Shown here: positions 5,314 to 45,943 of the stretch, one piece after another
Layout: every line of letters begins with the position of its first letter
How positions within the stretch are numbered: position 1 is the first letter of the stretch
IMG/VR virus record: IMGVR_UViG_3300027721_000016
Coordinates: 1 to 61,387 of that record
Origin: a virus
Taxonomy: Duplodnaviria > Caudoviricetes
DNA: 61,387 nt
Direction: 5' to 3' (one strand)
Notes under the pieces: generated by a model
Seen by the model: the letters and a program-made list of their open reading frames with translations, nothing else
Database searches by the model: none
What the model was told of the DNA's origin: nothing
Made by a program: the position numbers and the translations under genes

Positions 5314-5339
5314 CTTAATACATCTCCAATACCCACTAT

Positions 5340-5362
5340 GCTATATATCTATATATACTTAT
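5340..5362 (-). promoter_or_regulatory. Archaeal TATA promoter of the antisense cassette
   Basis: Minus strand aagtatatatagatatatag. Confidence 0.6.
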
Positions 5363-5466
5363 CCCTACCTAATAAACGACCCATTAAGGCCACAATTCCA
5401 GCCTACCAGTACAATTATGCCATCCATGTAGCGAAAGGCTGCCTACGAGGCGCTAGTGAGGTCAAT

Positions 5467-22331: not shown

Positions 22332-22671
22332 AGGCCACTGCCAGCATTGCAAATGGGGCCGAGGGATGTTAGGATGTATGCCGAATCGCATGGCGGCTAA
22401 CGGGGGCAATTGCAAAGACTGGCAACCCAGGAAGCTATCCAGGGTGAAAAAACTGAAGACTAAGCGATTGGCGGCCAATGGTGGGAGAGGAGGCGCATAG
22501 GATGCTAGTGGCAAAATGGGTGGCATGGTTAGAAAATAAACTTTTTGGACATGAATGCAGTAATTGTGACAAATTCTATGAAGACGTTCCAGGATGTGAA
22601 ATAGGAAAATGTGAATATATCAATAAAAAAGCTAGACGATGGCAATACTGCTGTTGCTGGAGGCCGAAAAA

Positions 22672-23208
22672 ATGACCTGCATAATCGGCCTGAAACGAGA
22701 CGGCAAAGTCTACATGGGCGCGGATAGTCGCTATCTGGATGGGTGGCACATAAACAGATCGCCAAACCGCAAGATATTCCGAGCGGGCGAGATGCTGATA
22801 GGCACCAGCGGCAACCTTCGTGTCTCTGACATTTTGCAATACAATCTCGATGTTCCGTCGTTGGGCGGACTGGATCCTGCCAATTACACGGCGCAAGCCG
22901 TTATACCGGCCATCAGGCAGGCTCTGACAGAACATGGCGCTATTGGCCTCATGCCAGATTCGGCCATTATGATTGCCTATCAGGGCTGCCTGTTTATTAT
23001 TGGAGAAGATTTCTCATTGAGCGAAATTGCTGAATATGAGGCGATTGGGGCCGGGGCGAAATACGCATTGGGCAGCATGTATATGTGGGCGTGCGCACAA
23101 CCGCTCGGAGAAAAAGGCGATCCCATGATGCAGATTGAGGCGGCGTTGGCCTGCGCGGCTTACTTCAGCGCGAGCTGCGCCGGGCCGTTTGTAGTTGAAA
23201 AATTGTAG
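22672..23208 (+). CDS. Ntn-hydrolase (HslV/proteasome beta-like) protein
   Basis: MTCIIGL N-terminal Thr; GADSR, KIF and AIGAGA motifs. Confidence 0.78.
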   Translation: MTCIIGLKRDGKVYMGADSRYLDGWHINRSPNRKIFRAGEMLIGTSGNLRVSDILQYNLDVPSLGGLDPANYTAQAVIPAIRQALTEHGAIGLMPDSAIMIAYQGCLFIIGEDFSLSEIAEYEAIGAGAKYALGSMYMWACAQPLGEKGDPMMQIEAALACAAYFSASCAGPFVVEKL

Positions 23209-23225
23209 GATGTAAGCTTCATACA

Positions 23226-23918
23226 TCATAAATTTTTAAATCCTGGCATTAATACGCCATCTATATTGTTTGATCCAAGTTTATAAAATTCCGGGTCAAA
23301 CAGCGTCGACATTCTTGTATTCTCAATTCCCAATAACGCACCATATCGGTCATAGTGGCTGCAATATGGCAAATCGTTGCTGACTATATAGGTCCAAACG
23401 TCGCGGGCCGTGAGGTTCATCAATGGGTAACATTCCAACATTTTACCATTCCAACGGAATGGTTCAGATGCTTTGCGTTTGCGTTTTCCGGATTCTTCTC
23501 GGCGGAGGCCAATGAATGCCAGATCGTATCCTTTTGATATCAGATCGGGTTGCACCCGGCCAAACATCTCGGGAAAATAGATGTTTTTGGAAGTTCTGCC
23601 AGCGAGATCATATTTGCTGGATGTGTCCACCCGGATATTCTTTGCCCCAATTGTTCCCGCGATGCCCAATATCTCAGTTTCCAACCCCATCGGAAAATAA
23701 TATTTCCCGAAATAGAAATGTTCAACTAAGACCTCAGGACAGACACGTAGAACCATATGAAGCATAACCAGGCTATCTTTGCCACCTGAGTATGCGATGT
23801 ATGGTTTATTTGCCCGATCGAGGGCCTCTGCAATGAGTCCTTGAGATGCTTCGATCCGGTCTTTGTAATCATCTAATTCAGCATGCATTTGGAAGGCAGC
23901 CTTTTCAATCGGTGTCAT
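23226..23918 (-). CDS. cysH: CysH-like PAPS-reductase-family protein (type IV-B associated)
   Basis: PP-loop SGGKDS, GLRREES..R, YPL...DVWTYI...LPY...YD; end of the csf gene run. Confidence 0.85.
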   Translation of the reverse strand: MTPIEKAAFQMHAELDDYKDRIEASQGLIAEALDRANKPYIAYSGGKDSLVMLHMVLRVCPEVLVEHFYFGKYYFPMGLETEILGIAGTIGAKNIRVDTSSKYDLAGRTSKNIYFPEMFGRVQPDLISKGYDLAFIGLRREESGKRKRKASEPFRWNGKMLECYPLMNLTARDVWTYIVSNDLPYCSHYDRYGALLGIENTRMSTLFDPEFYKLGSNNIDGVLMPGFKNL

Positions 23919-24102
23919 TGAAATCGTTTAGACTCCTGTCCATACATGGTTTTTTCCCATGAATCTTACCATGAATCTGTTCATATTCTTCTCGGAACGA
24001 TCTTTTAGATGGCTTCTGGTAGCATGTATAGCAGACAGGTCCAACGCCGGATACCGTCATCTTGCCATCCAGGTCAGATGTACCGCATAGTCTACATTTC
24101 AT
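23905..24102 (-). CDS. Small Zn-finger protein
   Basis: CRLC...CYTC. Confidence 0.5.
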   Translation of the reverse strand: MKCRLCGTSDLDGKMTVSGVGPVCYTCYQKPSKRSFREEYEQIHGKIHGKKPCMDRSLNDFNDTD

Positions 24103-24676
24103 AAGTCGTGCTCCTTCTAGGATTTCCAAAACAGTTAGCAGAATGACGCACTAGAGACGGTAGAATATCCGTTGCATGGTCAACTAAGTTAGGTAGGCAG
24201 ATCCAAACAGGCTCCTTTTTGGCCCGAAGGAACATCTGCAATTGCTCATCATGCCAAATTCGATTAGCCAAACGACCGTTATCTAACCAATTAAGATAAT
24301 CATCAAGCAAATCGTGTCTCATTATAACTGCTTCTTCTCCTAAAAACGAGGACGGTGCGGAACGTTCCCATTTTTTCCCCTTTTCGAATGCCAGCCGCGC
24401 GGTTTTTCTGGGACTATACAGAGAAATGAACCGCTTTCCATCACATGTGTCTAACCGCGAAACAAGCTGGTTAATAAAATCTTGGCAAAGACGCACGTCA
24501 TCATGAATTACCATGCCCCAATCATCACCGCGCACTGCATGCCACGCAAGTTCATGTCCATCTGACAATTTCAAATCGGGCCGCTCAATAATGATCAGAT
24601 CACCGGGCAAAAATGGAATTATGTGTTCTTCTGCATATGTCCGCCTCGGTGGCATCAAAGAAAGCGCAATCTTCAT
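24092..24676 (-). CDS. GT-A fold glycosyltransferase-like protein
   Basis: VIHDDVRLCQDF acidic motif, WHDEQL, PNLVDH. Confidence 0.65.
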   Translation of the reverse strand: MKIALSLMPPRRTYAEEHIIPFLPGDLIIIERPDLKLSDGHELAWHAVRGDDWGMVIHDDVRLCQDFINQLVSRLDTCDGKRFISLYSPRKTARLAFEKGKKWERSAPSSFLGEEAVIMRHDLLDDYLNWLDNGRLANRIWHDEQLQMFLRAKKEPVWICLPNLVDHATDILPSLVRHSANCFGNPRRSTTYEM

Positions 24677-25746
24677 AGTATTGCCCTCCACCTTTCAAGC
24701 TTATCATTTTTCGGCTTCTTGGTAATTGAGATATTATTTTCCCAATCATTGATTAGAAGTTGCTTACATTGTTGCCGGAAAGTATATTCATCTTTCGGCT
24801 GATCCGCAAATCGCTTCACGAATCTGTATCGCTTCTCAGTTGGTATAGTCGCTAGCAGATAATCGCGATATTCCAGCCACTTTTTGAATGCGTTGGGCAA
24901 TTTCCCGTTGCTGTAGATCATATTTTCTTTAGCATACAAGGCGGCACAATGTGTGCCCTTTATTCGCTTTATGACTTTTTCAAACGTGTCTGGTTCAAGA
25001 ACCTGCAAGTCCGTCAGACACTTGAAAGATTTTTCGTGTATCAGGTTGCTGACACGCATTTTGTTATAGATGCTGGTCCCGTTCATAAAAATTTTGTTGT
25101 AGATATCGTTATAGGAAAACTGGTTATCATATATGTATTTCCAGACATCGCCCATGCCCCAGTCATAAATAGGGTACATTTTGTACGATTTTGAGTTACT
25201 TGATTTGGTGCTCCACTTGATGCCCTTGTATCCAGGATATTTGGTAACTGCCCGATACCGGGTTATTCCCTCCTCTGCTCGGAGGCCTACCAAAAACGCA
25301 CTTCCATCCGGTTGCCAAGCTTCAAACCAGTTAAAGAATTTATAGAATCTTTGGGGGTAGGGATCACTTATAGATTTTATCGAGATGTCCTCTTTTGGCC
25401 TCAGCCATTCGGCTCCTTCCGACCATGCATAGAGCATGTCCTCTTCATAGCTGGTTGAATTCGTCATGTAGATCGGCACTTGATACCACATTGGCACCAC
25501 GTTTGGATGTGCCATCATGGTTCGCACGACATCGATAGTTGCAGCATACTCAACTTCTTGGTCAAGGTAGAACAAATTGATTTTTCTGTCCCTCTTAATC
25601 GCTTCTTCCAGTGCCAGATGATACAAAGCAGTTGAATCCTTTCCACCGCTAACCGATACATATATGTGTTCAAATGTATCAAATATGAACGCAATTCGTT
25701 CGCGGGCGGCTTCAAGGACATTTTTCCCCAAATATTTACGCTTCAT
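24673..25746 (-). CDS. ibrA: IbrA-like PAPS-reductase / DUF3440 protein
   Basis: NVLEAARERI, SVSGGKDS, YLDQE, GLRAEE..TR, YPIYDW...DVW, MRVS. Confidence 0.85.
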   Translation of the reverse strand: MKRKYLGKNVLEAARERIAFIFDTFEHIYVSVSGGKDSTALYHLALEEAIKRDRKINLFYLDQEVEYAATIDVVRTMMAHPNVVPMWYQVPIYMTNSTSYEEDMLYAWSEGAEWLRPKEDISIKSISDPYPQRFYKFFNWFEAWQPDGSAFLVGLRAEEGITRYRAVTKYPGYKGIKWSTKSSNSKSYKMYPIYDWGMGDVWKYIYDNQFSYNDIYNKIFMNGTSIYNKMRVSNLIHEKSFKCLTDLQVLEPDTFEKVIKRIKGTHCAALYAKENMIYSNGKLPNAFKKWLEYRDYLLATIPTEKRYRFVKRFADQPKDEYTFRQQCKQLLINDWENNISITKKPKNDKLERWRAIL

Positions 25747-26569
25747 AAAGAGCCTCTGTAAGGTCGTTTGTCTCAGATACAATTCGTTCTATTTCGGATC
25801 GCAGATAGAGATCTACCTTCAGGTCGGTGACGTGAAACGTCATCTCTTCCCTTATGTTATAGAGTTTTTTCATGTCGGAGAAGATATTTCGCTCAGGGCA
25901 GATAGATTTTGCATAATCAGTTAGTCCCTTTATGATGCTCTTGATATTGGTTTTGGTATCAAAAAGCTCTTCTTTCAGAACATAGTATTCTTCTTGTTGC
26001 TCATCGGTTACATGATGCTCATCGAAGTTGATTTCGAAGTCGAAGAACTTCTGGTAATGCATCTTAGTATGTTCTCCGACTTTCGAAACTATCCAAGGTA
26101 CCTGTAAAGGTCTTTCTGCCAATCGGCCATCTTGCCAGGCACGATAAGCAGATTCCGCCGCGAATGAATGGTTATACTCCATAATAGTGGTTCGGAGTAA
26201 ACTATAAGGCCACATGATACGCCAGATTTCATCTTTGAAAGGCACGGTATCGATCGAGTACTTGCAACCATATTTGGAATAGTTAAATGCATACTCATAT
26301 CTCTGATCGCACCGGTTGGCAGGAGTCATCATATCGCTTATTCCGAGCACCACCAAAGCATTATTCTCATTATCCTGTAGCACTTCCTTGGTACTCGATC
26401 CATAGTTTTCAAAATCTATGAACGCGATGTCTGGCAATGCTAGAAGCGATGGATCGAATAATGGACTTTTAGACGTATATAGGCAATGAACCTCATTGAA
26501 TCCCGTAATGCCTGTCAAGATACCAGGAACATCCGCCGGATTCTTAGTGAAATGGCATCTGCCGATCAT
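25736..26569 (-). CDS. Hypothetical protein, possibly a degenerate SNF2-like helicase N-domain
   Basis: IDTVPF...WRIMWP and VTDEQQEEYY resemble SNF2 motif III and linker; no Walker A. Confidence 0.45.
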   Translation of the reverse strand: MIGRCHFTKNPADVPGILTGITGFNEVHCLYTSKSPLFDPSLLALPDIAFIDFENYGSSTKEVLQDNENNALVVLGISDMMTPANRCDQRYEYAFNYSKYGCKYSIDTVPFKDEIWRIMWPYSLLRTTIMEYNHSFAAESAYRAWQDGRLAERPLQVPWIVSKVGEHTKMHYQKFFDFEINFDEHHVTDEQQEEYYVLKEELFDTKTNIKSIIKGLTDYAKSICPERNIFSDMKKLYNIREEMTFHVTDLKVDLYLRSEIERIVSETNDLTEALYEA

Positions 26570-27177
26570 TCTTCAACCCCCCACGCCTCCGCATATTCGT
26601 TCGCCCTAAGCATCTTGGCTGCCCCGGCTGTCTGCTTGAGTCTCAACAGCTCTTCAGTGGTCATGCCTAGATGAGCCGCGATCTGTTCATCCGATTCTCC
26701 GGACGACATTCGCTTAACAAGTTCGCCCATGAGATCGACTTGGTGACGGCCCCGCGCGCGATTATGCCTAACCGTTGAAGCATATCGTTCTTCGACCGTT
26801 TTGTTGATCTTTGTTATGGGAAGGTATCCGTAAATCCTCGCTTTGATATCCGGGTTTTGTTCGGGTATCTGCGATCTATGAAACCCATCGACCACTGTGT
26901 TTTTGTCGCCATCTCGACACGATACGATCGGCTGAGTAATACCGTCTTCGCGAATCGAAATCGCCAACAGCTTCATTTCCGGTTTTGCGACTTTGTTGGG
27001 ATTGTAGTCGTTTCTTACCACGGTGCTTGCCTGAACCCACACAACCAAGTCTACAGGCTCGTTTTTGAATGGACTGATTTCATGCAGCGCGGTTCTCATC
27101 TCATTCAAGGCATCTACCTTTTCCGCTAAAGGCAGTGCGTCGATGTGTTTCAACACATCCACCATTCCAGGAATCAT
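26566..27177 (-). CDS. ibrB: IbrB-like ParB/Srx-domain protein
   Basis: EPVD.V.WV, NDYNPN.VA.PEM.LL..SI.EDG.TQPIV, VDGFHR, STVRHNRARG.H. Confidence 0.88.
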   Translation of the reverse strand: MIPGMVDVLKHIDALPLAEKVDALNEMRTALHEISPFKNEPVDLVVWVQASTVVRNDYNPNKVAKPEMKLLAISIREDGITQPIVSCRDGDKNTVVDGFHRSQIPEQNPDIKARIYGYLPITKINKTVEERYASTVRHNRARGRHQVDLMGELVKRMSSGESDEQIAAHLGMTTEELLRLKQTAGAAKMLRANEYAEAWGVEE

Positions 27178-27872
27178 ATCTCGCATCTCCCCCCAGGAGC
27201 AACACACATAGCCACATTCTCTGGTGCCCATCCAGGGAACGTATAAGCTAATCGCATCACTCGGATATTCTCAAACGATTTCAGCATGTTACATGGGATA
27301 GATCGCATCGCGATACCGTCTTTCGTGATGCTCCAATCAGTCGGTAATTCAGATATCGCGAAGCCGCAAACTTCGCCCCCACCAACTGCCCGCTTCTTCC
27401 CAAGATGCCTGATAGGAGATAGCAACCTCTTCAGTTCTTCCAGATTTCCGTTCATGTAGAATTTCACCGTCTTGCTGGCGGAATACGGGAATTTCATCAT
27501 ATAGTCCCTCATCATGCCGCTATTTCGCCGTATCCTGGTTTTGGTTTTCAGGTCCGCCGCCTCATGAAAACGCTTGTAGAGGACGGTTGTGTGCATCTCA
27601 TCAGTATCAAGAATTGATGCACTTGCGTGATAGATCAGACCCGTTTTTTGCAGGGGCAATCTCAGGAATTTCGATACTGGCAGCGGCTCTTTGGTGGGCA
27701 AGTTGTAGAACTCATCTCCTAGCATATCTTCCATCAGCATTCTAGCTACCAGCGCATCGCCAAAAATCCAAGGGAAGGCCATCATAAGCGGTGTTGCCAA
27801 CGAGAATGTTATCTCACATGGCTGGAAATCGGCAGGCGGGTTGTATGCCGCTAACCGATCTAATACAGTCAT
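27174..27872 (-). CDS. csf3: Type IV CRISPR Cas5-group RAMP (Csf3)
   Basis: ITFSLATP...DALV, YHASA, G-loop HLGKKRAVGGGEV, C-terminal MRSIP/FPGW. Confidence 0.85.
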   Translation of the reverse strand: MTVLDRLAAYNPPADFQPCEITFSLATPLMMAFPWIFGDALVARMLMEDMLGDEFYNLPTKEPLPVSKFLRLPLQKTGLIYHASASILDTDEMHTTVLYKRFHEAADLKTKTRIRRNSGMMRDYMMKFPYSASKTVKFYMNGNLEELKRLLSPIRHLGKKRAVGGGEVCGFAISELPTDWSITKDGIAMRSIPCNMLKSFENIRVMRLAYTFPGWAPENVAMCVAPGGRCEI

Positions 27873-28699
27873 CCCTGCTCCAATGTCTGCAACATCTTCA
27901 GCATGTCGTCTTTGTTGGCCTCTACAAAATCAAGGTACGGCTTCGCGTCAGGCTTCGCGGGATAATCTAGCCGGACTTCTGCGTTTCCAGTTCCAGATTT
28001 CGCACCAAGGCGGGGTCTGAGCATCCACAGATCAATCATTCTGCCCAGGCACGCGGCTTCGATCTCGGACGGATTTTGCAGCACAAACCCATGCTGAAAT
28101 ACCGTTGCCGGTGGGATGTACCACCAGGTATGGAGCATCTGCGAGGAATCGCCGCCTTCGGCTTTTGCGTCCTGGCTCATTTCGTCTCTCCTGGTATTGA
28201 ATGTCTGTTTTTGCAGATCACCAATGCTTGCCGTTATCGTCTCAGGATTTCGCAGAATGCCTGCCAGCTCCTTGCATCTAGGCACGGCATAGGCTACATC
28301 CAGCTTTCCCTCTAGCATCTGGTTCCTCATTGCAGTTCCGAGCAACGCGACCGGCGGCAACAAGCCACGGATTTGCTTTTTCAACGCCAGATCTATGTAC
28401 CCGCTGTCCTTCTCATCTACTTGCTCCAAGGTCCCGCCCGCGAAAAGGCTGTGATAAAGCCGCACTTGGCCTTTAGCATCGGCTGGCTGGAATCCCACCA
28501 GATCAATGAGATCTGCCATGATTAGGCGACGTAGAACGCCTCTGATGGCATTGCCGGAGACGACAGGCACCTCTTCCGGTCCGGTTGGCAGGTTGTAAAT
28601 TATTGTCCGAAGTCCTTTGTCATTTCCATTGTTCTCATCCGATCCGCTATGGATCGGGCTAAGGGCAGTTATTGTGCCCGGCACATCTAATATCTTCAT
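27869..28699 (-). CDS. csf2: Type IV CRISPR Cas7-group RAMP (Csf2)
   Basis: ITALSPIHSG, VPVVSGNAIRGVLRR, LFAGG.L, P.ALLG, G-loop LGAKSGTGNA. Confidence 0.9.
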   Translation of the reverse strand: MKILDVPGTITALSPIHSGSDENNGNDKGLRTIIYNLPTGPEEVPVVSGNAIRGVLRRLIMADLIDLVGFQPADAKGQVRLYHSLFAGGTLEQVDEKDSGYIDLALKKQIRGLLPPVALLGTAMRNQMLEGKLDVAYAVPRCKELAGILRNPETITASIGDLQKQTFNTRRDEMSQDAKAEGGDSSQMLHTWWYIPPATVFQHGFVLQNPSEIEAACLGRMIDLWMLRPRLGAKSGTGNAEVRLDYPAKPDAKPYLDFVEANKDDMLKMLQTLEQG

Positions 28700-29070
28700 A
28701 CAAATTTCTCCAATGATGCATTACCGTTCAAGGTCTTTTTTTCTTTTGCAAGTTTCGCGACCAAGAGAGCGATATATATGCTCTCGTTTCGCATTCGCCT
28801 GAGAACTTCAGGAGTTTCCTTTTCTAGATCCAAAAGTAGATCAGGATCGTATTCGAATGCAGTTGCCGTTCCGCCACGGGCTTGAAGCGGACATTTGGCG
28901 GCGATCGTCTCAAGTGCCGCCGCCACAGTGCGCTCATGGCCACCGATACGGATTCTACCTGCCATGAAATCATATGCCGACTTGGCGCCTGCTTTCTTCC
29001 AATCGATACTTCTGTAGCAATTGGCTAGAGTTTCGGCCAACTTCCTATAGATTTCATCTGGAAATTCCAT
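28696..29070 (-). CDS. cas11: Cas11-like small subunit (type IV-B)
   Basis: 124-aa helical ORF immediately upstream of csf2 and coupled to it. Confidence 0.65.
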   Translation of the reverse strand: MEFPDEIYRKLAETLANCYRSIDWKKAGAKSAYDFMAGRIRIGGHERTVAAALETIAAKCPLQARGGTATAFEYDPDLLLDLEKETPEVLRRMRNESIYIALLVAKLAKEKKTLNGNASLEKFV

Positions 29071-29218
29071 ATTTCTCCCCCCATAGTTTCAATGCTTCTG
29101 ATCCGGCGGCGGTGAGATCGCCGCGTTTGATTTTTCGCCCTAAGCGCCGTTCTAGGACGGCATGGAATAGGGCATTCTCTTCATCCGAGATCGAGAAAAA
29201 GATGCCTTTGGCGGGCAT
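29054..29218 (-). CDS. 54-aa RHH-like regulator
   Basis: MPAKGIFFSISDEENALF...EALKLW; overlaps the cas11 start. Confidence 0.55.
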   Translation of the reverse strand: MPAKGIFFSISDEENALFHAVLERRLGRKIKRGDLTAAGSEALKLWGEKYGISR

Positions 29219-29512
29219 TTAGGCCCTCAGTTCGTCGTTCATCTCGACGATTGCGATACGATCTTCTATCATCTCATCGAGCCAATCTTTCCCGATGAAG
29301 GGACTTCTCCATTCATCGCTGATATGGATTTCGTACTGGCTGGATGGAATGTTTTCAAACCAGCTGCCGCTTGTGTCCCTGTAGAGAATCTGTTTTAGTT
29401 CTCCTGTTATTCTATCTACGAAAAAGGAGTTTCCTTTTCCGCCTCTCTTTCTCATGTAGCTCATCATTGCCCGGCGGGCGTCCGTGTTCGGTCTTGCGAT
29501 CTCAGTTGCCAT
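29219..29512 (-). CDS. Hypothetical protein inserted in the csf operon
   Basis: 97-aa leaderless ORF behind its own TATA box. Confidence 0.65.
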   Translation of the reverse strand: MATEIARPNTDARRAMMSYMRKRGGKGNSFFVDRITGELKQILYRDTSGSWFENIPSSQYEIHISDEWRSPFIGKDWLDEMIEDRIAIVEMNDELRA

Positions 29513-29550
29513 AATACTAGCTAGTCTAGCTATCTATATATACCTTTCGC
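29513..29550 (-). promoter_or_regulatory. Internal BRE/TATA promoter with inverted-repeat operator
   Basis: Minus strand gcgaaaggtatatatag; perfect IR tagctag-t-ctagcta at 29518-29532. Confidence 0.7.
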
Positions 29551-29554
29551 CTGC

Positions 29555-30310
29555 CTAGCTCACAAACACCGCCATGCACCATGCAGGATCTGCCGCGCGG
29601 TGCCGCAAATCGCTAAGCACCGACGGCACGTCAAACCCAGCGTCGATCAGCTTCGCGACTCCGCCTGCACCCACATGGCCGCTTTCCAGCTCAGCTTTCG
29701 ACAACAGCACTTTGCCTGGTCGACTAGGATCAATACGCAGCATATCTATCAGCTTCAAGTCTAGATGCAACTTGGCTCGATCGATATAAGTTGGCTCATA
29801 GTCACATCCTGCCAAGAAGTACTCGCGGGAAGTGCTCACACCGCCGTTCAATCTGATCATTGCCTGCCAGGTCGTCTTTTTGTAGGTTCTGGTTAGGGAA
29901 ACCACAAACGGCGGCTCTGGTGGGTCGGTCAGTATGGAGCGCGGCGTTCTTTCGGGTAATGAGAATACTTCCGAAAGATCCCTTGCCACTAGCTGCTTGT
30001 CACCTGGCTTAGGCTCTCTTTTCGGGAAGCGAATGACACCGACGCCTTCAGAGGTCGCGTACCACGCATTGCTCCTGTAGAGCTTGCCCGCGCTCTGTTT
30101 TGCGCCGGGGATCTCTGCCGTCATCAGGTGGTGGCAGTTGGGACAGATCACGTTGCCGCCTGATAGCAGTGGCGCATTACAAAAGCTGTCACTGAAAATG
30201 GGAGGATGGCCTTCTGGGGTGGGTTCACCACAGAAAACGCAATTTCCTGTCATATTGCCATGCACCGGATCGATCTTCCGAGCCATCACGACCAATTCAG
30301 ATAGGTTCAT
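29555..30310 (-). CDS. csf1: Type IV CRISPR large subunit (Csf1, Cas8-like)
   Basis: N-terminal Zn finger CVFC...CPNC; ILTDPPEPPFVV...KK..W motif. Confidence 0.8.
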   Translation of the reverse strand: MNLSELVVMARKIDPVHGNMTGNCVFCGEPTPEGHPPIFSDSFCNAPLLSGGNVICPNCHHLMTAEIPGAKQSAGKLYRSNAWYATSEGVGVIRFPKREPKPGDKQLVARDLSEVFSLPERTPRSILTDPPEPPFVVSLTRTYKKTTWQAMIRLNGGVSTSREYFLAGCDYEPTYIDRAKLHLDLKLIDMLRIDPSRPGKVLLSKAELESGHVGAGGVAKLIDAGFDVPSVLSDLRHRAADPAWCMAVFVS

Positions 30311-30319
30311 GTATCTTCC

Positions 30320-31042
30320 TCAATTTTGTTCGATCCTGGGGGCCAAAAGATAGCTAACGGCTATGTCCTTTCCCACCGAAAACATTATGCGGCTCGGATA
30401 ATCCACCCCGGTTTCCACAGTCGTCTCATTGCCGGATGCTACTTTTGCAATGTCTTCCAAGTATTCCAGAGAAAACAGAGACCTACTTATCCCCTGCCGG
30501 ATGCCGCTCAGTTCCGACAAGACGAAGTCGGCCCGGAACGAGTCTACGCCGGACTCGGAGACTATCGAAAACGTGTCCTCGTTTTGCTCTAAGGTAGCTG
30601 CTTCGCAGACTTTAACGGCGTTTTTCACAGCGGTGTATAGGTCGCTTCCCGCTATGGTCACAGCACATGGCAGATCGATAGATGGTATCCTCGGATTGGC
30701 CTTCAGGCTGGAAGGGTCAATCAGGGACATGATGAACGAGGATCGGCCCTGCTTGATTCGGAGCTTATGGTTGGCCTCATCTAGCTCCATGCTGATAGGC
30801 TCGCCTTTGCCGATCATGCTGCCCAATTTATCAATGTCCACCGCGATTTCGCAGTTGGTAGCTTCGAAGTGCTCAAATGCGTCCTTGCCAGCGACCAGCG
30901 ACACCATAGCCACGTTGGCCGGGTCGACGGTCTCTATTCGCAGGCCGTCAGGCGAAATGCCCATTCGGATTTCGGTTTGGATGCTGCTTATAGAGGCTAT
31001 GATGCTGTTTAGGGATTCGGGTTTTATGACTGCTTTAAACAA
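30320..31042 (-). CDS. pcn: PCNA sliding clamp
   Basis: MFKA..., VDPANVAMVSL, SLFSLEYL, YLLAPRIE. Confidence 0.93.
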   Translation of the reverse strand: MFKAVIKPESLNSIIASISSIQTEIRMGISPDGLRIETVDPANVAMVSLVAGKDAFEHFEATNCEIAVDIDKLGSMIGKGEPISMELDEANHKLRIKQGRSSFIMSLIDPSSLKANPRIPSIDLPCAVTIAGSDLYTAVKNAVKVCEAATLEQNEDTFSIVSESGVDSFRADFVLSELSGIRQGISRSLFSLEYLEDIAKVASGNETTVETGVDYPSRIMFSVGKDIAVSYLLAPRIEQN

Positions 31043-31043
31043 G

Positions 31044-31295
31044 TTAAATCACCTTCAATTCAAATGTTAGGTCGTTGTCGATCATGATTTTTTCCAGCGT
31101 GGCGGGTAGCGATTTCTGCACCGCGCGTTCGATCAACGAACCTACCTCGCGATCTACCCGGTCTTTCACAGATTCGACTATGCTGGTATAGTCGTAACCC
31201 AGTCTTTCGCCGCAATCGTCGCAGATACGCAGTTTGGCATAACGCTTGAAGTGCTTCGATATGCAGCGTTCCTTTTCACAGAGTTTACAGAACAT
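31044..31295 (-). CDS. Small Zn-finger protein
   Basis: CKLC...CDDC. Confidence 0.5.
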   Translation of the reverse strand: MFCKLCEKERCISKHFKRYAKLRICDDCGERLGYDYTSIVESVKDRVDREVGSLIERAVQKSLPATLEKIMIDNDLTFELKVI

Positions 31296-31305
31296 GTTTT
31301 ACACC

Positions 31306-31692
31306 TCAGTTTTCTATTTCTGCATAACTGTTCTCGTTTTCGTAGACTCTGACACGGATAACGTTCATATCTCTTCTGAGCATATCTAAAATATGAACCG
31401 CAATATTTTCAGCCGTCGGGTTAGCATCCAACCCCATGACATGTGTTTTCATAAACAACAATTCAAACATGGGATCTGCTTTGTTTAAGATTGTGGTATG
31501 GTCTAGCATGCCAATTTTTTCCTTGACGTCGAAGAAATCTACCAGCATGCCAAAGCGATCTTGTTTCATTCCTTCAAGCCATACTTCTGCTATGAACCCA
31601 TGTCCGTGGAGGTTTTGGCATTTTCCGGGATACTCAAAAAGCCTATGCGCTGCATCAAATTTCACTTTCGTGTGTATGATCATAAAGAACAC
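31306..31692 (-). CDS. queD: 6-carboxytetrahydropterin synthase (QueD)
   Basis: FDAAHRL..Y.GKCQNLHGH, GMLVDF, LDH..LN, PTAENIA, VYE. Confidence 0.92.
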   Translation of the reverse strand: MFFMIIHTKVKFDAAHRLFEYPGKCQNLHGHGFIAEVWLEGMKQDRFGMLVDFFDVKEKIGMLDHTTILNKADPMFELLFMKTHVMGLDANPTAENIAVHILDMLRRDMNVIRVRVYENENSYAEIEN

Positions 31693-32459
31693 TCCTTGGA
31701 TAAATATCTATAGTAATTAGTCAAATTCAAGGCGCAAAGCGTCATGAATGGCGCATAACCAGAACCTGGCAATGCCACCATGCGCTTAACTACATTTTCT
31801 TCTGGCGCTACAAATGGACTCCAGTAGATCTTTTTGATTGTATGGGTGGATATGAAAGAGCTATCCATGCTAACTACGTGGTCCCGTGCGGCTTTGAAGT
31901 TTGCTACCTGCTCTTTTGGATTCCCGCCTAACAAATGGAGCTTTACGTCGTATTCCAGGTAGCTTGTCATTGGTATAGGCTTGGATTTTCCGAATGCCTC
32001 GCCGTTGGGCCTGCCAACGATCCACCCTGGTTTCAGGACGTTTACGATTTCCTTCAATCCCCTTTCGCTTTTTGGTATCAATATAACTTTTTCACAATAC
32101 TTATTAGCATCCTCCGCAAATGATACGATTTCATCTAATGGGTGATATTTCAGTCCGATCTCCCGGCATTGCTCTTCCGAGAAATAATCTACCACCGATG
32201 TCGTTTTGGGATGGTATTTTTCCAATGCATCCAAATGCTTCGCATGATCGTAGTTCATGAAATCATTATCTATGAACTGGATTTTGTCATTCTGGCATTT
32301 GAAAGTCTTATCTGATCGCATTCCCAATTTGAAGCCGAAGGCAGTCGCCAAACAGCACATCGGCATTTTCAGAGGTATGCTACCACAGATAAAAATATCT
32401 ATATCCGGTAGCTTATACTCAGTTTTTCCGGCAGGCTCGCCGGTCAAGCTCGTTTGCAT
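31680..32459 (-). CDS. TGT/DpdA-like TIM-barrel protein, putative 7-deazaguanine DNA transglycosylase
   Basis: FIDN, KLHLLGG and VSMDSS motifs; directly upstream of queD. Confidence 0.55.
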   Translation of the reverse strand: MQTSLTGEPAGKTEYKLPDIDIFICGSIPLKMPMCCLATAFGFKLGMRSDKTFKCQNDKIQFIDNDFMNYDHAKHLDALEKYHPKTTSVVDYFSEEQCREIGLKYHPLDEIVSFAEDANKYCEKVILIPKSERGLKEIVNVLKPGWIVGRPNGEAFGKSKPIPMTSYLEYDVKLHLLGGNPKEQVANFKAARDHVVSMDSSFISTHTIKKIYWSPFVAPEENVVKRMVALPGSGYAPFMTLCALNLTNYYRYLSKECSL

Positions 32460-34675
32460 GGTTCAAACCTCGCTGTAAACATATCAAGTCCTATCTGTTT
32501 TGGTTTTTTGCTCTCTGATGCAGCTCTTTCCAGATTCAACGCCGCTTGTGTGTAATAGCTTTCCTTCAGCTCAAATCCAATGAACTTTCTGTCATTGAGC
32601 AAAGCAACGTGCCCAGTGCTACCTATGCCCGCGAATGGGTCTAGGACCGTATCTCCCGGATTTGTCCATAGATCAATAGCTCTCTTGATTACTGGGAGCT
32701 GGAGGGGACAAATGTGGCGGTCGTCTTCTTCCGCCCTGGCTGATCTATATTGCAGGGTATCGCCCGCGTCTATATCCGTCCAGATTGGACTGGCGTAGTG
32801 TTGCCAAACCGCTACCGGGAAGCTCTCGTTGGTATGTTCAACTGGTTCCGGGTTGGTTCCTGGTTTCACAAAGGTTACCAGGTAATCGGCTATGCCTTGC
32901 CGGCATCTACAAGAGTCCTTTTTCAGTTGTTTATGGAGCAGTCCAAGGGCTTTAGTTCTCTGCATAGCGGTTACTGGATCTTTCCAGATGCAAACCTCGG
33001 AATGATATATGAATCCGGCTGCTTGAAATATCCTGATCAGGTCTCCTCTAAAGTCCTTGATTCCTATGTAGCCATCGCGTTCTTTTGTAGTTGGCAAGTT
33101 CATACAGTGGACCGACATTAAGCGACCTGGCATCAATACTCGAAAAAGATCGGGCGCTAGGTATCCGAAATGTGCATAGAACTCTTCGCTGTTTTGGCAA
33201 TTTCCCAAATCAGAAGGTGAGTTTGTGTATGTGTATAACGACTGGAATGGCGGAGAATATACGCTAAAGTGTATGGAATTATCGGCAATGGTTTTGATTT
33301 CATTACAGCTATCCCCGAGTCTCAATTCCCACCCATCGCCTTTCGATGTCTCATTTCGCAGGGTTTCCGTCACCCTCTCAGAGCTTTTCAGGTTTTCTTT
33401 GGCAATTTCCTGGGTTTCAGATATCATTCCTTTTAACATAATTCCAAACTCCTTTTCCTTTCGCTTGATGTTCTTGACTACCGCGCCTTCCGCTTCTGAG
33501 GTGACTACATAAACTTGAACTGGATACTGTTGACCGAATCGCCAGCACCGGCGCACTGCCTGGTAATATTGCTCGAAGCTATCCGACAGTCCGGTGAATA
33601 TCATTTTATGGCAGCATTGGAAATTTAACCCAAATCCAAAAATTGAAGACTTGGATATTAGCACTTTGATCTTTCCAGCGGCAAAATCTCTAGCAGCTTG
33701 TGCTTTTTTCTCATGATCATCAGAGCCACGTATTTCTATAGATCCTGGTATGGCCTTCTTCAAAGCATCAGCTTCAACATTCAGATCGCACCAAACCAGC
33801 CACGGGCCATCCGATGCATTCACGATATCTGCAACCCTCGATACCCGCATATCAAGGCTATTTCGCCGCGCTCCTCTGCGATCTTGTAAAGTCAGAGCCT
33901 CTTTCACTATATAACCGGTCTTATCCACCACAATCTGTTCTATAGTCAATGGCGGCAGCTTGAAGCCATTGTCTTCATATCCGAGATCGCTCGGCATCTG
34001 AAGCATAACAGCCCATGATGCCACCCATTGCCAGAAAGCTCCTTTGGCGTGCCCTTTGAGTCTCCATTTTGATGTATCGCTCCCATCATGCAGGAAATAC
34101 ATACTAAGCATTTCGGTTCTTGTCATGATGTTCAAGAATTCTGCATGATTGCCTAGCTCCATGTGGTCATTTGGGGCGGGCGTCGCGGTGCAAGCCAGCC
34201 TGTAAGGTGTCTCTCGAAATGCTTCTATGATTTGCGTCCTTACTTTTCCCTCAAAACTTTTTAAGATGCTGGATTCGTCTAATACGATGCCAGTAAACGA
34301 TTTTGCATCAAAATGGTCTAGCATTTCGTAGTTGGTGATATTGATCCCTGGCAAAACATCTGATTGACTCCGGCAAATATTGACTTTTATGTCAAACTTG
34401 CCGCCTTCGTTGGCCGTTTGTTGGACCACAGCCAACGGCGCGAGGATTAGCACATCGCCGCCTGAATGCTTGCAAACTTGATCGGCCCATGATAACTGAA
34501 TAGCGGTCTTGCCTAATCCGGTCCCTGCGAACACCGCTGCCTTGCCTTTCTTGCAGGCCCATTTTGTAATATCTGCTTGAAATGGAAAGAGCTTATCGCT
34601 TATGCCTTCTGCTTGAAATCCGGATGGGATGGCCTTAAATTGCTTAGATGCCAGGAATTCGTTATAGTCCTGCAT
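32444..34675 (-). CDS. SF2 (SNF2-like) helicase fused to an N4C/N6A DNA methyltransferase
   Basis: GTGLGKT, LDESS, TATP, QAVRRCWRFGQ; MTase motifs SPPF and LDPFAGIGST. Confidence 0.9.
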   Translation of the reverse strand: MQDYNEFLASKQFKAIPSGFQAEGISDKLFPFQADITKWACKKGKAAVFAGTGLGKTAIQLSWADQVCKHSGGDVLILAPLAVVQQTANEGGKFDIKVNICRSQSDVLPGINITNYEMLDHFDAKSFTGIVLDESSILKSFEGKVRTQIIEAFRETPYRLACTATPAPNDHMELGNHAEFLNIMTRTEMLSMYFLHDGSDTSKWRLKGHAKGAFWQWVASWAVMLQMPSDLGYEDNGFKLPPLTIEQIVVDKTGYIVKEALTLQDRRGARRNSLDMRVSRVADIVNASDGPWLVWCDLNVEADALKKAIPGSIEIRGSDDHEKKAQAARDFAAGKIKVLISKSSIFGFGLNFQCCHKMIFTGLSDSFEQYYQAVRRCWRFGQQYPVQVYVVTSEAEGAVVKNIKRKEKEFGIMLKGMISETQEIAKENLKSSERVTETLRNETSKGDGWELRLGDSCNEIKTIADNSIHFSVYSPPFQSLYTYTNSPSDLGNCQNSEEFYAHFGYLAPDLFRVLMPGRLMSVHCMNLPTTKERDGYIGIKDFRGDLIRIFQAAGFIYHSEVCIWKDPVTAMQRTKALGLLHKQLKKDSCRCRQGIADYLVTFVKPGTNPEPVEHTNESFPVAVWQHYASPIWTDIDAGDTLQYRSARAEEDDRHICPLQLPVIKRAIDLWTNPGDTVLDPFAGIGSTGHVALLNDRKFIGFELKESYYTQAALNLERAASESKKPKQIGLDMFTARFEPCKRA

Positions 34676-34807
34676 TGAAGTACCTCTGGCAAAATTCTAG
34701 CAATTTGCCTTTGCACTCTCCTTCTTCTTGGTTATCGAAAGAACTCGGAGTAAATTGCCTGCAATCGGCGCATCCGAGATGGTCGGTGTCTTTGAAAGAT
34801 AACATCC

Positions 34808-35164
34808 TCATAGCTCTTCCGCCCTCCTACAATTCCCTTTAGCCTTCTCAATCGGATACCGTTGGCCGTTGATGGCTATTTTTTTCCTGGTAGATGCCAA
34901 CAAATCTATCCCCATCTTATCGCAGAACTGGAGAAGGTAAATAAACACATCGGCGACTTCATCAGACAACTGATCATGGAGGGCATTGGGGCAATTCTTC
35001 CATGACAGGTTATCATTTTCCCATTGGAAGGCTTGAAGCAATTCGTTGGCTTCTAAGCTAATAGAGATCGCGAGGTTTTTTGGGGTGTGGAATTTCTGCC
35101 AATCGCGATCTGAAGCGAATTTGGCAAGATCCATCTCCAGTTGGCCTATTTCAGTTAGGGGCAT
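34808..35164 (-). CDS. MazG-like nucleotide pyrophosphohydrolase (dCTPase-like)
   Basis: RDWQKFHTPKNLAISISLEANEL...DEVADV. Confidence 0.88.
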   Translation of the reverse strand: MPLTEIGQLEMDLAKFASDRDWQKFHTPKNLAISISLEANELLQAFQWENDNLSWKNCPNALHDQLSDEVADVFIYLLQFCDKMGIDLLASTRKKIAINGQRYPIEKAKGNCRRAEEL

Positions 35165-35518
35165 TTATTCTTCCTCACATTCATGGCTATCCACATAATG
35201 ATTTAGAGCCTCATCTTCGCTGGCAAATGGGCCTTCTGATTCAGAGTCTATATCCCAATACCAGCCTTCTGGTAGTTGGTATGTCTTGGGGATAAGGTTC
35301 ATGCTTTTCCTCCATAGAAGGCCATCAGCTTCTCGTAGTTCATCCTTTCCCATCGATCCATTGGCATGGTCCTAAGTTGCTGATGAATTTGGCCATAGGC
35401 TTTCGCCCTGGCTACTTCTTCTTGGATTGTCATTTTTCGCATACCCCTTATAGGTATTTCATAGCATATAAACGTATCTACGAAAACTTTATAACCTAAC
35501 AAAACAATACTTCTAACC

Positions 35519-35677
35519 ATGAAAGACTATCATGTCCCACTGAAAATAATAGCTGGTGGAAGGGTGACTATACCAGAAGAGGTACGGCGAAAGCTGAAGG
35601 TGACGGTTGGGGATGTCGTAGATGTGACGTTCGCGGCAGAAGAAAAGAAGGATGCTCTCGCAGACACGAGAGCGTAG
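35519..35677 (+). CDS. AbrB/MazE-family regulator (not in ORF track)
   Basis: GGRVTIPEEVRRKLKVTVGDVV; leaderless after TATA at a divergent promoter. Confidence 0.8.
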   Translation: MKDYHVPLKIIAGGRVTIPEEVRRKLKVTVGDVVDVTFAAEEKKDALADTRA

Positions 35678-35808
35678 GTGATTCAAATGGCCAATAAGAA
35701 GAATGCCACCTATCCTATAAATAAGCATCGATGCGCTAAGAAAGGATGCTTGACTGATCCGGTTTTGTGCAAGCCGGGCATGTGTCCGGATTATACGAGG
35801 CGGTCTGG

Positions 35809-36546
35809 ATGATGCTTGCCTTGGATCAAGAAGAGGCGCGTATTCAAGCCGAACCGGGGTTAAAAGGAACCTGCCCGGTATGCAAGACCGATGTAATACC
35901 CAAATGTGGCGAAATCAAGACGTGGCATTGGGCGCACAAGTCTCTAAGAGACTGCGATACATGGAGCGAACCCGAAAGCGATTGGCATTATAACTGGAAG
36001 ATGGAAGCAGGGCTTGAAAACACCGAAATTGTCATCCAAAAAGACGGCAAAGTCCACCGGGCCGATATTAAAACCACGCGAGGACTGGTTATAGAGCTTC
36101 AGCATTCTCCATTGTCGCCACAAGAAGTCCGAGAACGGGAAGAATTCTATGGAAACATGGTATGGGTCATTGATGGAGACGAAGTTTGCCCCGGATTCAT
36201 ATTTGAGCAAAACGTTTCCAGAGAGGAGAGTCTGTACTTTAAGCACGGTGGAATTAAAAAAGCATGGGTAAACGAGATTACTAAGCCATGTTTTATTCAT
36301 TTCTCGGAAAGAAGATATGATACATATTATTATTACAACGAGTTTAAACTTTACGAAGGGATATTAAACAAAAGTCTTAGGAAAGACGTTGTGCAAGGCG
36401 GAACAAAACAGCTAACGGATGTCATGATACACCTACACAACTGGGTTAAAAATAAAAGATATTGTAGCTTGATGTCCAAGAGCGATTTCATCACAAAATT
36501 CATTCCAGTGGCACCGCGACGCCAAAAATCATTATTCGCGTTCTGA
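35809..36546 (+). CDS. CoiA-like nuclease
   Basis: CPVC...KCG....WHWAH..C, ESDWH, HRADI...VIELQHS. Confidence 0.82.
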   Translation: MMLALDQEEARIQAEPGLKGTCPVCKTDVIPKCGEIKTWHWAHKSLRDCDTWSEPESDWHYNWKMEAGLENTEIVIQKDGKVHRADIKTTRGLVIELQHSPLSPQEVREREEFYGNMVWVIDGDEVCPGFIFEQNVSREESLYFKHGGIKKAWVNEITKPCFIHFSERRYDTYYYYNEFKLYEGILNKSLRKDVVQGGTKQLTDVMIHLHNWVKNKRYCSLMSKSDFITKFIPVAPRRQKSLFAF

Positions 36547-36549
36547 GGT

Positions 36550-45508: not shown

Positions 45509-45943
45509 ATGTCTACATACGATTACGCAAAATCCGAGCTAGAAAGGGCGAAATATTTCGACGGCGATATGAACCAAGCAATGGCCGAAGATATCTTACA
45601 GCTAATCAAAGTGTTCGGAGAGCAAGGACACTCTGGATTTTCTGCACCGTTCTGCATCAAGTTATTTACTCGACTGGCATCGCATAAGCCAATGAGTCCA
45701 TTGACCGGGGAAGACGATGAGTGGGCGGAAGTTGGTGATGGTGTTTGGCAAAACAAACGATATTCTGCTGTATTCAAGGACAAAGACCATGCGTATAACG
45801 TCGAAGGCAAGATCTTCATAGACCCAGACGGAACCACATGGACGAACCCGGATAGCAGAACTGGTGTGGTGTTCCCATATACGGTATGCGATCCGGTGGT
45901 CGTCAATCGTGATGAAGCCGGTAATGTGATCGAGGCGGTCTAA
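45509..45943 (+). CDS. Conserved phage hypothetical protein
   Basis: QGHSGFSA, PLTGEDDEW, QNKR.S.VFK motifs. Confidence 0.65.
   Translation: MSTYDYAKSELERAKYFDGDMNQAMAEDILQLIKVFGEQGHSGFSAPFCIKLFTRLASHKPMSPLTGEDDEWAEVGDGVWQNKRYSAVFKDKDHAYNVEGKIFIDPDGTTWTNPDSRTGVVFPYTVCDPVVVNRDEAGNVIEAV

Follow-up and report, generated by a model that had tools for sequence, protein, structure and literature searches.

What does an array-less CRISPR-Cas effector do in an archaeal tailed virus, and why does a second PP-loop enzyme, with a ParB-type protein, lie inside its operon? These questions are raised by the IMG/VR virus record IMGVR_UViG_3300027721_000016, which is 61,387 bases long, is rated 100% complete, and was analysed as a whole (hereafter, the window). 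Its minus strand carries the genes of a type IV-B effector (csf1, cas11, csf2, csf3 and a cysH-like gene), along with a pair coding for an IbrA-like PP-loop ATP-pyrophosphatase and an IbrB-like ParB protein (the IbrAB module). Type IV-B is described as a CRISPR-Cas subtype without known function, the main lead being its near-constant cysH-like partner (PMC8175902, PMC7038947). Trees of related sequences indicate at least seven separate gains or losses of IbrAB by viral and plasmid IV-B operons, with the module usually lying inside the operon. We put the probability of a real functional coupling between the Csf effector and the module at about 0.55, and that of any specific chemistry for the coupling lower. 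The pairing offers a new handle on the role of this enigmatic CRISPR type. The locus consists of the following features, where ORF is open reading frame and aa is amino acids:

29555–30310, minus strand: csf1, Cas8-like large subunit, 251 aa (PADLOC Csf1_0_IV 6.2e-20; TIGR03114 3.5e-6, below cut-off)
29513–29554, minus strand: spacer of 42 nt between csf1 and the 97-aa ORF, with a palindromic TATA-like box, GGTATATATAG (minus strand)
29219–29512, minus strand: 97-aa ORF, opening the csf1-cas11 insert (no match in Pfam, PADLOC or PHROG)
29054–29218, minus strand: 54-aa ORF, second gene of the insert (no Pfam match; 17-nt overlap with the start of cas11)
28696–29070, minus strand: cas11, small subunit, 124 aa (PADLOC Cas11_0_IV 9.1e-15)
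27869–28699, minus strand: csf2, Cas7 backbone subunit, 276 aa (PADLOC Csf2_0_IV 1.1e-55)
27174–27872, minus strand: csf3, Cas5, 232 aa (PADLOC Csf3_0_IV 1.0e-46; TIGR03116 8.1e-15)
26566–27231, minus strand: IbrB-like protein of the ParB/Srx superfamily, 221 aa (phrog_2159 6.1e-59)
25736–26569, minus strand: SNF2-like lobe without ATPase motifs, 277 aa (from an AF2 model and Foldseek; no Pfam match)
24673–25782, minus strand: IbrA-like PP-loop ATP-pyrophosphatase, 369 aa as called (PAPS_reduct and DUF3440; phrog_2302 1.2e-91)
24092–24691, minus strand: predicted GT-A-like (GT25-like) glycosyltransferase, 199 aa (phrog_854 'glucosyltransferase' 9.9e-11)
23905–24129, minus strand: four-Cys Zn-ribbon protein, 74 aa as called (CxxC...CxxC in the translation)
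23226–23918, minus strand: cysH-like (CasCysH) PP-loop enzyme, 230 aa (PAPS_reduct 6.8e-18; SGGKDS present)

The identities of the genes in this operon are near certain. An earlier note on the window had read the order as csf1, an insert, cas11, csf2, csf3, ParB, SNF2-like, IbrA, glycosyltransferase, Zn finger and cysH, and the ORFs and their translations place every one of these genes on the minus strand as described. Its four csf and cas11 assignments were confirmed by the PADLOC type IV profiles, which match all four. With the NCBIfam type IV models, csf1, csf2 and csf3 score 26.8, 31.8 and 55 bits, far below the equivalog cut-offs of 140, 130 and 140, so they are best regarded as divergent members of type IV. 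Csf2 has 55 homologues, the least similar at 35% identity and each covering at least 96% of the query, and the N-terminus of Csf1 carries a four-Cys Zn-ribbon (CxxC...CxxC, read in the translation). Based on this gene content, the locus is assigned to subtype IV-B as a genuine array-less effector operon.

From 29512 down to 23226, eleven genes follow one another without an intergenic gap, overlapping by 4–58 nt (as called from first start codons). Upstream, csf1 is packed against its neighbours, with the gene for a PCNA-type clamp ending 9 nt before it. The TATA-like box of the spacer lies ~25–30 nt upstream of the start of the 97-aa ORF, is similar to a TATA-like box at 5328–5363 (repeat D6), and is a possible archaeal promoter for a transcription unit running from cas11 to cysH. 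A sigma-70 promoter scan of 22500–36000 performed at chance (22 found, 21.5 expected) and no conclusion was drawn from it. The junction between csf1 and cas11 (29054–29554) is also a second variable site. In the window it holds the two orphan ORFs behind the TATA-like box, neither of which has a homologue in 88 related loci. Two close relatives carry ~0.9 kb at this junction (L182, 2675–3542; L183, 198–1099; L-numbers denote fetched comparison loci) with no tblastn match to the two ORFs of the window, and a third, L184, has no gap there.

Recurrence of the csf and IbrAB pairing

A scan of viral contigs with the single Csf2 protein found no relative, and the comparison loci were retrieved by an alignment-based scan; the best 80 of 81 confirmed loci make up the Csf2-seeded IMG/VR set. 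Linked loci were defined as those with a full-length IbrA (at least 330 aa) and a ParB protein, detected with iterated profiles that covered each gene of the locus in the window. Eleven of the 80 are linked (L013, L014, L016, L019, L020, L026, L034, L036, L043, L045 and L048), corresponding to 10 of 53 clusters when Csf2 is clustered at 80% identity and the window and L082 are counted. The module is not found at a single position. It lies between csf3 and cysH in the window, the L013 group and L019/L020; after cysH, at the end of the operon, in L026; between csf2 and csf3 in L034, L043, L045 and L048, with or without cysH (junctions csf2/csf3 and csf2/cysH); and between cas11 and csf2 in L036. 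Nine of the 11 ParB genes are within the csf-cysH span and the other two are within 1.2 kb of it, one of these on a truncated contig, and no ParB gene was found in the remaining ~1.04 Mb of flanking sequence of the Csf2-seeded loci.

The linkage extends to other sequence collections. One of ten genome contigs with a related Csf2 is linked (L100, 65.6 kb, binned as Methanobrevibacter), as are two of four metagenome contigs (L183 and L185), whose Csf2 proteins are 75–79% identical to that of the window; L184, with a Csf2 63% identical, has a canonical csf1-cas11-csf2-csf3-cysH order without the module. Among the plasmids of PLSDB, Csf2 matches 69 records, mostly of Rhodococcus and other actinobacteria, and IbrA matches 710, mostly of enterobacteria, and a comparison of the first 40 entries of each list revealed at least two plasmids with both. 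Plasmid unnamed2 of Actinarchaeum halophilum YIM 93972 (NZ_CP071309.1, 69669–76523) carries the whole composite on one strand, in the order Csf1, Cas11, Csf2, Csf3, CysH-like, two small or unknown ORFs, ParB, SNF2-like and IbrA. In plasmid RHOApd of Rhodovastum atsumiense (NZ_OW485605.1), an HTH-IbrA-GNAT-x-ParB run (HTH, helix-turn-helix) is convergent with Csf1-Cas11-Csf2-Csf3-x-CysH. Since these two plasmids carry both modules, the pairing is not restricted to viruses or to archaea. According to the earlier note, its proposal would fall if ibrAB and the glycosyltransferase never accompanied csf genes elsewhere; it is not refuted in this way, as the pairing was recovered in many independent loci, usually inside the operon.

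Seeding with IbrA gives the converse view. Among the IbrA loci, of which at least 305 were confirmed and the best 80 kept, a ParB gene adjoins IbrA in 79 and csf genes are present in four, one of the four being the same contig as L043. Five IbrAB records have no Csf2 match, two of them rated 100% complete; an empty search result shows nothing by itself, but the Csf2 profile did recover the divergent Csf2 of L082. Hundreds of phages carry IbrAB with no csf genes, and it is therefore a separate module, captured repeatedly by viral IV-B operons.

The number of such events was estimated from two trees, one of Csf2 (80 rows; the L069 and L070 fragments of less than 200 aa omitted) and one of IbrA (99 rows; L108, the same contig as L043, dropped, and csf-linked rows over-represented by design). 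The IbrAB label requires 10 changes on the Csf2 tree, at least seven of them forced by well-supported branches, and the csf label likewise requires 10 changes on the IbrA tree, with at least seven forced. The csf-linked IbrA proteins occur in both major IbrA clades, and linked and unlinked proteins are sisters in the pairs window/L085 (support 95), L082/L083 (nearly identical IbrA) and L106/L107. Within a single 80%-identity Csf2 cluster, L048 has the module and six loci lack it. Modules have also been exchanged, since the window combines a Csf2 nearest to that of L183 with an IbrA nearest to that of the csf-less L085.

In two loci, L036 and L045, IbrA is the sole PAPS_reduct-family gene in the whole record, and in L045 it is placed between csf2 and csf3, where relatives carry cysH. 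That IbrA takes the place of cysH in these loci is suggestive rather than proven, because the records are only 35% (L036) and 55% (L045) complete and cysH could lie in the missing part. We infer that IbrA/IbrB serves the IV-B systems of mobile elements as a recurrent accessory, which either works as an additional partner or replaces CasCysH.

The earlier note had proposed that the RAMP filament may be coupled to, or scaffold, a nucleic acid modification pathway with two PP-loop enzymes. This proposal is supported in part: the recurrence of the pairing in many independent loci, usually inside the operon, speaks for a functional link between the modules. The incompleteness of L036 and L045 is one of several points that weigh against the coupling. 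The case is a genetic one, and a complex prediction for Csf3 and CasCysH with the ParB partner scored 0.00 without controls, which gives no verdict on binding either way. Both trees come from quick searches and have only SH-aLRT support. Neither module requires the other: 69 of the 80 viral IV-B loci, all but two of the 40 plasmid entries compared (of 69), and 76 of the best 80 IbrA loci have one without the other. In GenBank phage records, IbrA (E ≤ 1e-10) occurs in 223 of 50,697 (~0.4%) and Csf2 in one, and relative to that rate its presence in 8 of 51 Csf2-seeded clusters has a binomial P of 7.5e-11, a rough figure because the base rate comes from a different, redundant collection and the loci are best-80 sets. 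Lastly, the variable regions of viruses gather counter-defence genes, and adjacency could arise there without cooperation.

This last point can be developed into an explanation of its own, in which two independent counter-defence or accessory cassettes landed in the same recombination-prone region and each does its own job. The csf-less majority of the best IbrA loci and the two complete viral genomes with the module but without Csf2 fit such co-location. So does the look of a DNA modification island that is given to the window's block by its MazG, helicase-methylase, DpdA4 and QueD genes, as do the second variable site at the csf1/cas11 junction, where L182 and L183 differ in content and L184 has no insert, and the module exchange seen in the affinity of the window's IbrA to L085. 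Independent landing does not, however, readily explain why nine of 11 insertions are inside the csf-cysH operon and on its strand when the ~1.04 Mb of wider flanks has none, why insertions split the genes for subunits of one complex (csf2/csf3 and cas11/csf2), why the module sits at the usual spot of cysH in loci without another PAPS-reductase gene, or why the pairing arose at least seven times. We regard co-location without cooperation as possible but somewhat unlikely.

Two side observations concern the distribution of IV-B itself. The sole cultured-phage record matching Csf2 is that of Skermania phage SPI1 (L091; KR011061.1, 33743–36242; 26% identity, E 1e-6). The match falls within a co-oriented run of csf-sized genes, all annotated as hypothetical, and this run may be an unrecognised type IV-B system in an isolated actinophage. 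Short contigs with viral-type IV-B (P0013; L092–L098, L101) have been binned as Synergistaceae, Omnitrophota, Patescibacteria, Ignavibacteria, Alphaproteobacteria, Bacteroidetes/Chlorobi and Methanobacteriaceae. Some of these metagenome-assembled genome (MAG) labels may belong to mis-binned viral contigs, in which case the published bacterial (Omnitrophica) origin inferred for the Csf1 of a Methanoperedens virus would be affected.

The PP-loop enzymes and their partners

The window's CasCysH is 44–48% identical to cysH-like genes that lie beside csf3 in L010, L011, L013, L015, L017 and L018, but in the window five genes intervene between csf3 and cysH. The catalytic Cys motif of the C-terminus, ECG.H, is missing in the window's protein and in all 33 aligned family members (0/33), matching the description of CasCysH as lacking the catalytic Cys (PMC8175902). 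In a profile comparison, CasCysH aligns with residues 10–277 of IbrA (probability 99.7, E 1.7e-26), pointing to a shared fold. A derivation of CasCysH from IbrA was considered and dropped, as the CasCysH profile strongly matches canonical CysD (2e-22) and CysH (1e-20) and IbrA is the divergent one. The IbrA of the window matches PF01507 over residues 40–232 (6.9e-15) and PF11922/DUF3440 over residues 240–326 (3.1e-13), both above cut-off, and its start is likely to be the Met at residue 13. Its PP-loop is intact, with SGGKDS in the translation and S[GS]GKDS in 14 of 14 family rows.

A PP-loop enzyme of the PAPS-reductase family next to a ParB-superfamily partner recalls the DndC and DndB proteins of DNA phosphorothioation, and the earlier note had drawn on this frame. 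In a Dnd-like reading, IbrA would act as DndC and the ParB protein as DndB, targeted by the Csf filament. IbrA does match DndC models (PADLOC DndC 2.6e-8; TIGR03183 5.3e-7), and DndB is described as belonging to the ParB superfamily (PMC10853773). The TIGR03183 score is, however, 28.9 bits against a cut-off of 290.4. The function of DndC is tied to a cysteine dyad (PMC10853773), and in contrast no Cys column is conserved in at least 60% of the rows of either PP-loop family (14 IbrA, 33 CasCysH), in keeping with the published view of CasCysH cited above. Pfam scans of ~55 window ORFs gave no cysteine desulfurase, DndD or DndE, although no search was aimed at these. The missing cysteines and the low DndC score weaken the phosphorothioation frame and make sulfur insertion of the Dnd type unlikely, and the reading as a whole is extremely improbable. 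In the DpdA/DpdB system, DpdB is described as a ParB-like ATPase that supports insertion by DpdA (PMC12839542); the window does have a DpdA4 gene, but it is separate, its stop (31680) lying 4.4 kb upstream of the ParB start (27231), and IbrAB is widespread without DpdA.

The ParB protein reaches only 19.7 bits with Pfam ParB_N, below cut-off, and its profile matches the N-domains of Spo0J (4umk) and Noc (7ol9) at ~3e-6. A DGFHR motif is read in its translation, and DG.HR is kept in 35 of 35 family members. Its C-terminal region is HTH-like, with weak matches to FliA/sigma-70 (E 0.02). The name of the E. coli pair, 'immunoglobulin-binding regulator', was given for the activation of prophage gene expression (PMC4490671, PMC8813620), and together with the HTH-like region this raises the possibility that IbrA/IbrB are transcription regulators controlling the csf operon or other viral genes. 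Against such a role, the retention of the PP-loop (14/14) and of DG.HR (35/35) makes both proteins look like working enzymes, the glycosyltransferase and SNF2-like lobe accompany them, and a regulator would not be expected to replace cysH. We consider it very unlikely.

The 277-aa protein between ParB and IbrA belongs to a compact family with 134 representatives (profile search of 1.84 billion representatives). Among 80 members there is no meaningful Pfam match (three unrelated families, hit by one member each at E 0.004–0.007), and none matches the Helicase_C or SNF2 Pfam models. An initial AF2 model built on 7 sequences could not be relied on (pLDDT 62.3) and was replaced by one from an 80-row alignment, with a pLDDT of 95.9; the Atlas model is poor (pLDDT 0.39) and its matches uninformative. 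Foldseek against the PDB returned 25 matches at E ≤ 0.001, each of them either an SNF2-type remodeller or chain Y of a vaccinia RNA polymerase complex, a chain that we take to be the SNF2-like NPH-I. The best is the Sulfolobus core 1z63 (E 7.4e-6), and others include Chd1, Snf2h, CHD4, CSB, INO80 and Mot1; TMq values of 0.33–0.55 over these matches (0.40–0.55 for the top ones) imply a partial match, to SNF2 lobe 1 with its helical insertion. Marginal sequence-profile matches in the PDB (E 0.035) that would relate the family to ABCE1 were not used. The Walker A motif ([AG]xxxxGK[ST]) is missing from the window's protein and occurs in only three of 80 family members. The label 'degenerate SNF2-like' in the earlier note therefore holds, given the SNF2-type matches and the lack of Walker A. 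With no Walker A, no Helicase_C and a length of just 277 aa, the protein is modelled as a degenerate, ATPase-dead SNF2-like lobe rather than an SNF2 ATPase in the enzymatic sense.

The glycosyltransferase has no Pfam match at E ≤ 0.1, but its Atlas model (pTM 0.84) aligns at a TM of 0.84 to a viral cluster that is 87% PF01755 (Glyco_transf_25). An HDD triplet in the translation could serve as the DxD motif, and homologues are present in L102 (1e-10) and L085. The Zn-ribbon protein is counted as part of the inserted module, and a 61%-identical stretch follows IbrA in L183. The arrangement in which one gene, the SNF2-like lobe, separates ParB and IbrA is shared by the window with L013, L082–L085 and L102, and in L083 and L085 the ParB, SNF2-like and IbrA genes occur without csf. 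Because the SNF2-like lobe and the glycosyltransferase accompany the 'short' IbrA with or without csf, they are assigned to the IbrAB module and not to Cas. A 'long' IbrA form (405–450 aa) is without the SNF2-like gene and also occurs with csf. The SNF2-like protein is conserved in the 'short-IbrA' form of the module, and the glycosyltransferase is an optional component.

Possible roles and known relatives

If the coupling is real, a sequence of steps can be envisaged. The Csf filament, loaded with RNA, would attach to a target nucleic acid and thereby recruit or position the PP-loop enzymes, which would spend ATP on adenylating a group carried by the nucleic acid or by a precursor. DNA might be held by the ParB-type protein together with the dead SNF2 lobe, by analogy with DndB/DndC and DpdB/DpdA, and the glycosyltransferase, where present, could decorate the product, the modification being used by the virus for counter-defence. 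Activation by adenylation, with the nucleophile coming from outside or a glycosyl transfer to follow, fits better than Dnd-type sulfur insertion. In its general form, this proposal casts viral and plasmid Csf ribonucleoproteins as RNA-directed platforms that deliver enzymes of ATP-dependent nucleic acid modification, with CasCysH and IbrA/IbrB as interchangeable or additive 'writers', the dead SNF2 lobe as a DNA-binding part, the glycosyltransferase sometimes following, and the free phage pairs as an untargeted form of the same chemistry. We offer it tentatively and consider it rather doubtful in this full form; if true, it would amount to RNA-guided epigenetic or counter-defence marking, not interference. 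That these operons have captured a second PP-loop enzyme and its ParB partner time and again supports the view that their output is a reaction of the ATP-pyrophosphatase type on nucleic acid, beyond binding alone.

The earlier note also raised the possibility of a CRISPR RNA (crRNA) sponge. In this explanation, the array-less Csf complex would absorb host crRNAs or other small RNAs and so counter host CRISPR, with the enzymes either irrelevant or modifying the captured RNA. Methanogen hosts commonly carry CRISPR. The same note had reported no array, cas6, dinG or cas1/2 in the complete genome, and repeat scans and model searches bear this out, which suits a sponge. The window contains no tandem array, CRISPR-like repeats or mini-array, has no Rfam match, and lacks matches to the Cas1, Cas2 and Cas6_C models. 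The csf4/DinG model scores 12.9 bits, on the helicase-methylase gene, against a cut-off of 400, and Pfam and PADLOC scans of the locus, not aimed at these families, returned no Csf5, RecD or Cas10-HD. A published IV-B complex was seen to assemble on heterogeneous non-CRISPR RNA (PMC7937560), and a negative correlation between IV-B and other CRISPR systems is reported along with a discussion of the sponge idea (PMC7038947). The same authors call it unlikely, for its complexity, and a sponge would leave the near-constant cysH partner and the repeated capture of a second PP-loop/ParB pair unexplained. The present data neither help nor hurt the idea, which we rate as improbable.

The locus can be compared with several known systems. 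IV-B systems with CasCysH, such as that of Mycobacterium sp. JS623 (PMC7937560; PMC8175902), have the same csf1/cas11/csf2/csf3 set and a cysH-like gene without the catalytic Cys, likewise have no array, cas6, dinG or adaptation genes, and are carried by mobile elements. The window differs in that its cysH is five genes away from csf3 (ParB, SNF2 lobe, IbrA, glycosyltransferase and Zn-ribbon), its csf1 and cas11 are split by two ORFs with their own TATA-like box, its carrier is an archaeal tailed virus, and its proteins fall below the NCBIfam equivalog cut-offs. IV-B has already been published in archaeal viruses, namely Fuxivirus of Bathyarchaeia (PMC10848311), whose authors state that type IV was previously unseen in archaeal viruses, and a Methanoperedens virus (bioRxiv 10.1101/2023.08.02.551345). 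These share the IV-B effector and cysH-like gene in an archaeal virus, with a counter-defence role proposed, but in the published account of Fuxivirus cysH adjoins csf3 and there is a two-repeat mini-array, whereas the window has IbrAB and no mini-array. The A. halophilum plasmid has the same composite on one strand, with an IbrA 49% identical to that of the window; it differs as a plasmid of a cultured haloarchaeon, in that cysH precedes IbrAB, and in that RefSeq calls its csf genes hypothetical. The IbrA/IbrB pairs of phages and plasmids (phrog_2302 with phrog_2159, e.g. Flavobacterium phage 1H gp21/gp22) have the same PAPS-reductase plus DUF3440 protein beside a DGxHR ParB, most of them without csf, SNF2-like lobe or glycosyltransferase.

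The linkage itself was not found in print as far as the literature searches reach, and supplementary neighbourhood tables may mention these genes. The term 'ParB' does not occur in the main texts of PMC8175902, PMC7038947, PMC12669027, PMC10848311, the Shmakov preprint (10.1101/270033) or the Methanoperedens preprint, and 'PAPS' is also missing from the Fuxivirus (PMC10848311) and Methanoperedens texts. Judged by title and abstract, none of the papers found to mention DUF3440 concerns CRISPR. A 2015 virome paper does report IbrA/B and CRISPR on one phage scaffold, but the latter is described as type I-E (PMC4490671). IV-B in archaeal viruses is thus known, and the recurrent IbrAB accessory is new as far as the literature search reaches. 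The linkage ties IV-B to a very common, uncharacterised phage and plasmid pair that is usually dismissed as a sulfur-metabolism gene or 'prophage regulator'; phage papers usually label the IbrA-type gene as a sulfur-metabolism 'PAPS reductase' (e.g., PMC12323421). Tractable material is at hand in the A. halophilum plasmid, which carries the whole composite, in the Rhodovastum plasmid, and in cultured phages of Flavobacterium and Mycobacterium smegmatis that have only the pair. Should the link prove only positional, the window is still a well-annotated archaeal virus with stacked DNA modification and counter-defence genes.

The virus, its host and the neighbourhood of the operon

The csf operon lies within a 12-kb block of DNA modification genes, from which the neighbourhood points to DNA modification and counter-defence. 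Other features of the genome are:

30320–31042: PCNA-type clamp
31680–32459, minus strand: DpdA4 (DUF6610, 3.9e-26)
32444–34675, minus strand: SF2/SNF2-type helicase fused to an N6/N4 DNA methylase, 743 aa
34808–35164, minus strand: MazG-like pyrophosphatase
10054–13821: tape-measure protein
50076–51608: large terminase, TerL (phrog_38, 2.1e-84)

DpdA4 overlaps a QueD/PTPS gene (7e-29) by 13 nt, the pair spanning 31306–32459 on the minus strand. DpdA4 with QueD is described as a signature of 7-deazaguanine DNA modification in archaeal viruses (PMC10516641). Elsewhere in the genome there is no Pfam match to TGT or QueC, so the deazaguanine precursor pathway would have to come from the host. That IbrA might replace QueC in the deazaguanine pathway of the virus was considered, but IbrAB is, as noted, widespread without DpdA. 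The helicase-methylase and MazG-like genes head the same minus-strand block as the csf operon, and in L039 a 55%-identical helicase-methylase is found 4 kb from csf1.

The terminase, the tape-measure protein and a Mu-F-like head protein identify the window as the genome of a tailed virus. The earlier note's call of an archaeal virus is well supported. All 21 records in the phage collection that match the PCNA-type clamp are archaeal viruses, the most identical match of TerL (51%) is a Caudoviricetes record with its host given as Methanomicrobiales, and DpdA4 is present, the renamed DUF6610 family that is described as specific to archaeal viruses (Hutinet et al., PMC10516641). The closest homologue of the 277-aa protein (69%; a word-based search that found 2 proteins) is labelled as a Methanotrichaceae MAG, and of the ten genome contigs carrying a related Csf2, four fall in Methanobacteriaceae bins. 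The host is probably a methanogen.

The genome has an exact terminal direct repeat of 126 nt, at 4–129 and 61262–61387. The record is nevertheless classed in the collection as 'linear, no end repeats', and its first three bases differ from those preceding the repeat copy at the other end. A megablast search of GenBank phages with the locus gave no match, Rfam, tRNA and tandem-repeat scans found nothing, and a search of sequencing runs listed no RNA run. Genes for a CoiA-like nuclease, a Prim-Pol primase-polymerase and a RecT recombinase (35767–37506 and 43712–44560) make up, alongside the PCNA clamp, a replication and recombination set of the virus. A 144-aa protein encoded at 45509–45943 on the plus strand matches Pfam Tad3 (type I Thoeris inhibitor) over the full profile at 1.1e-37, and is an anti-Thoeris family member in an archaeal virus.

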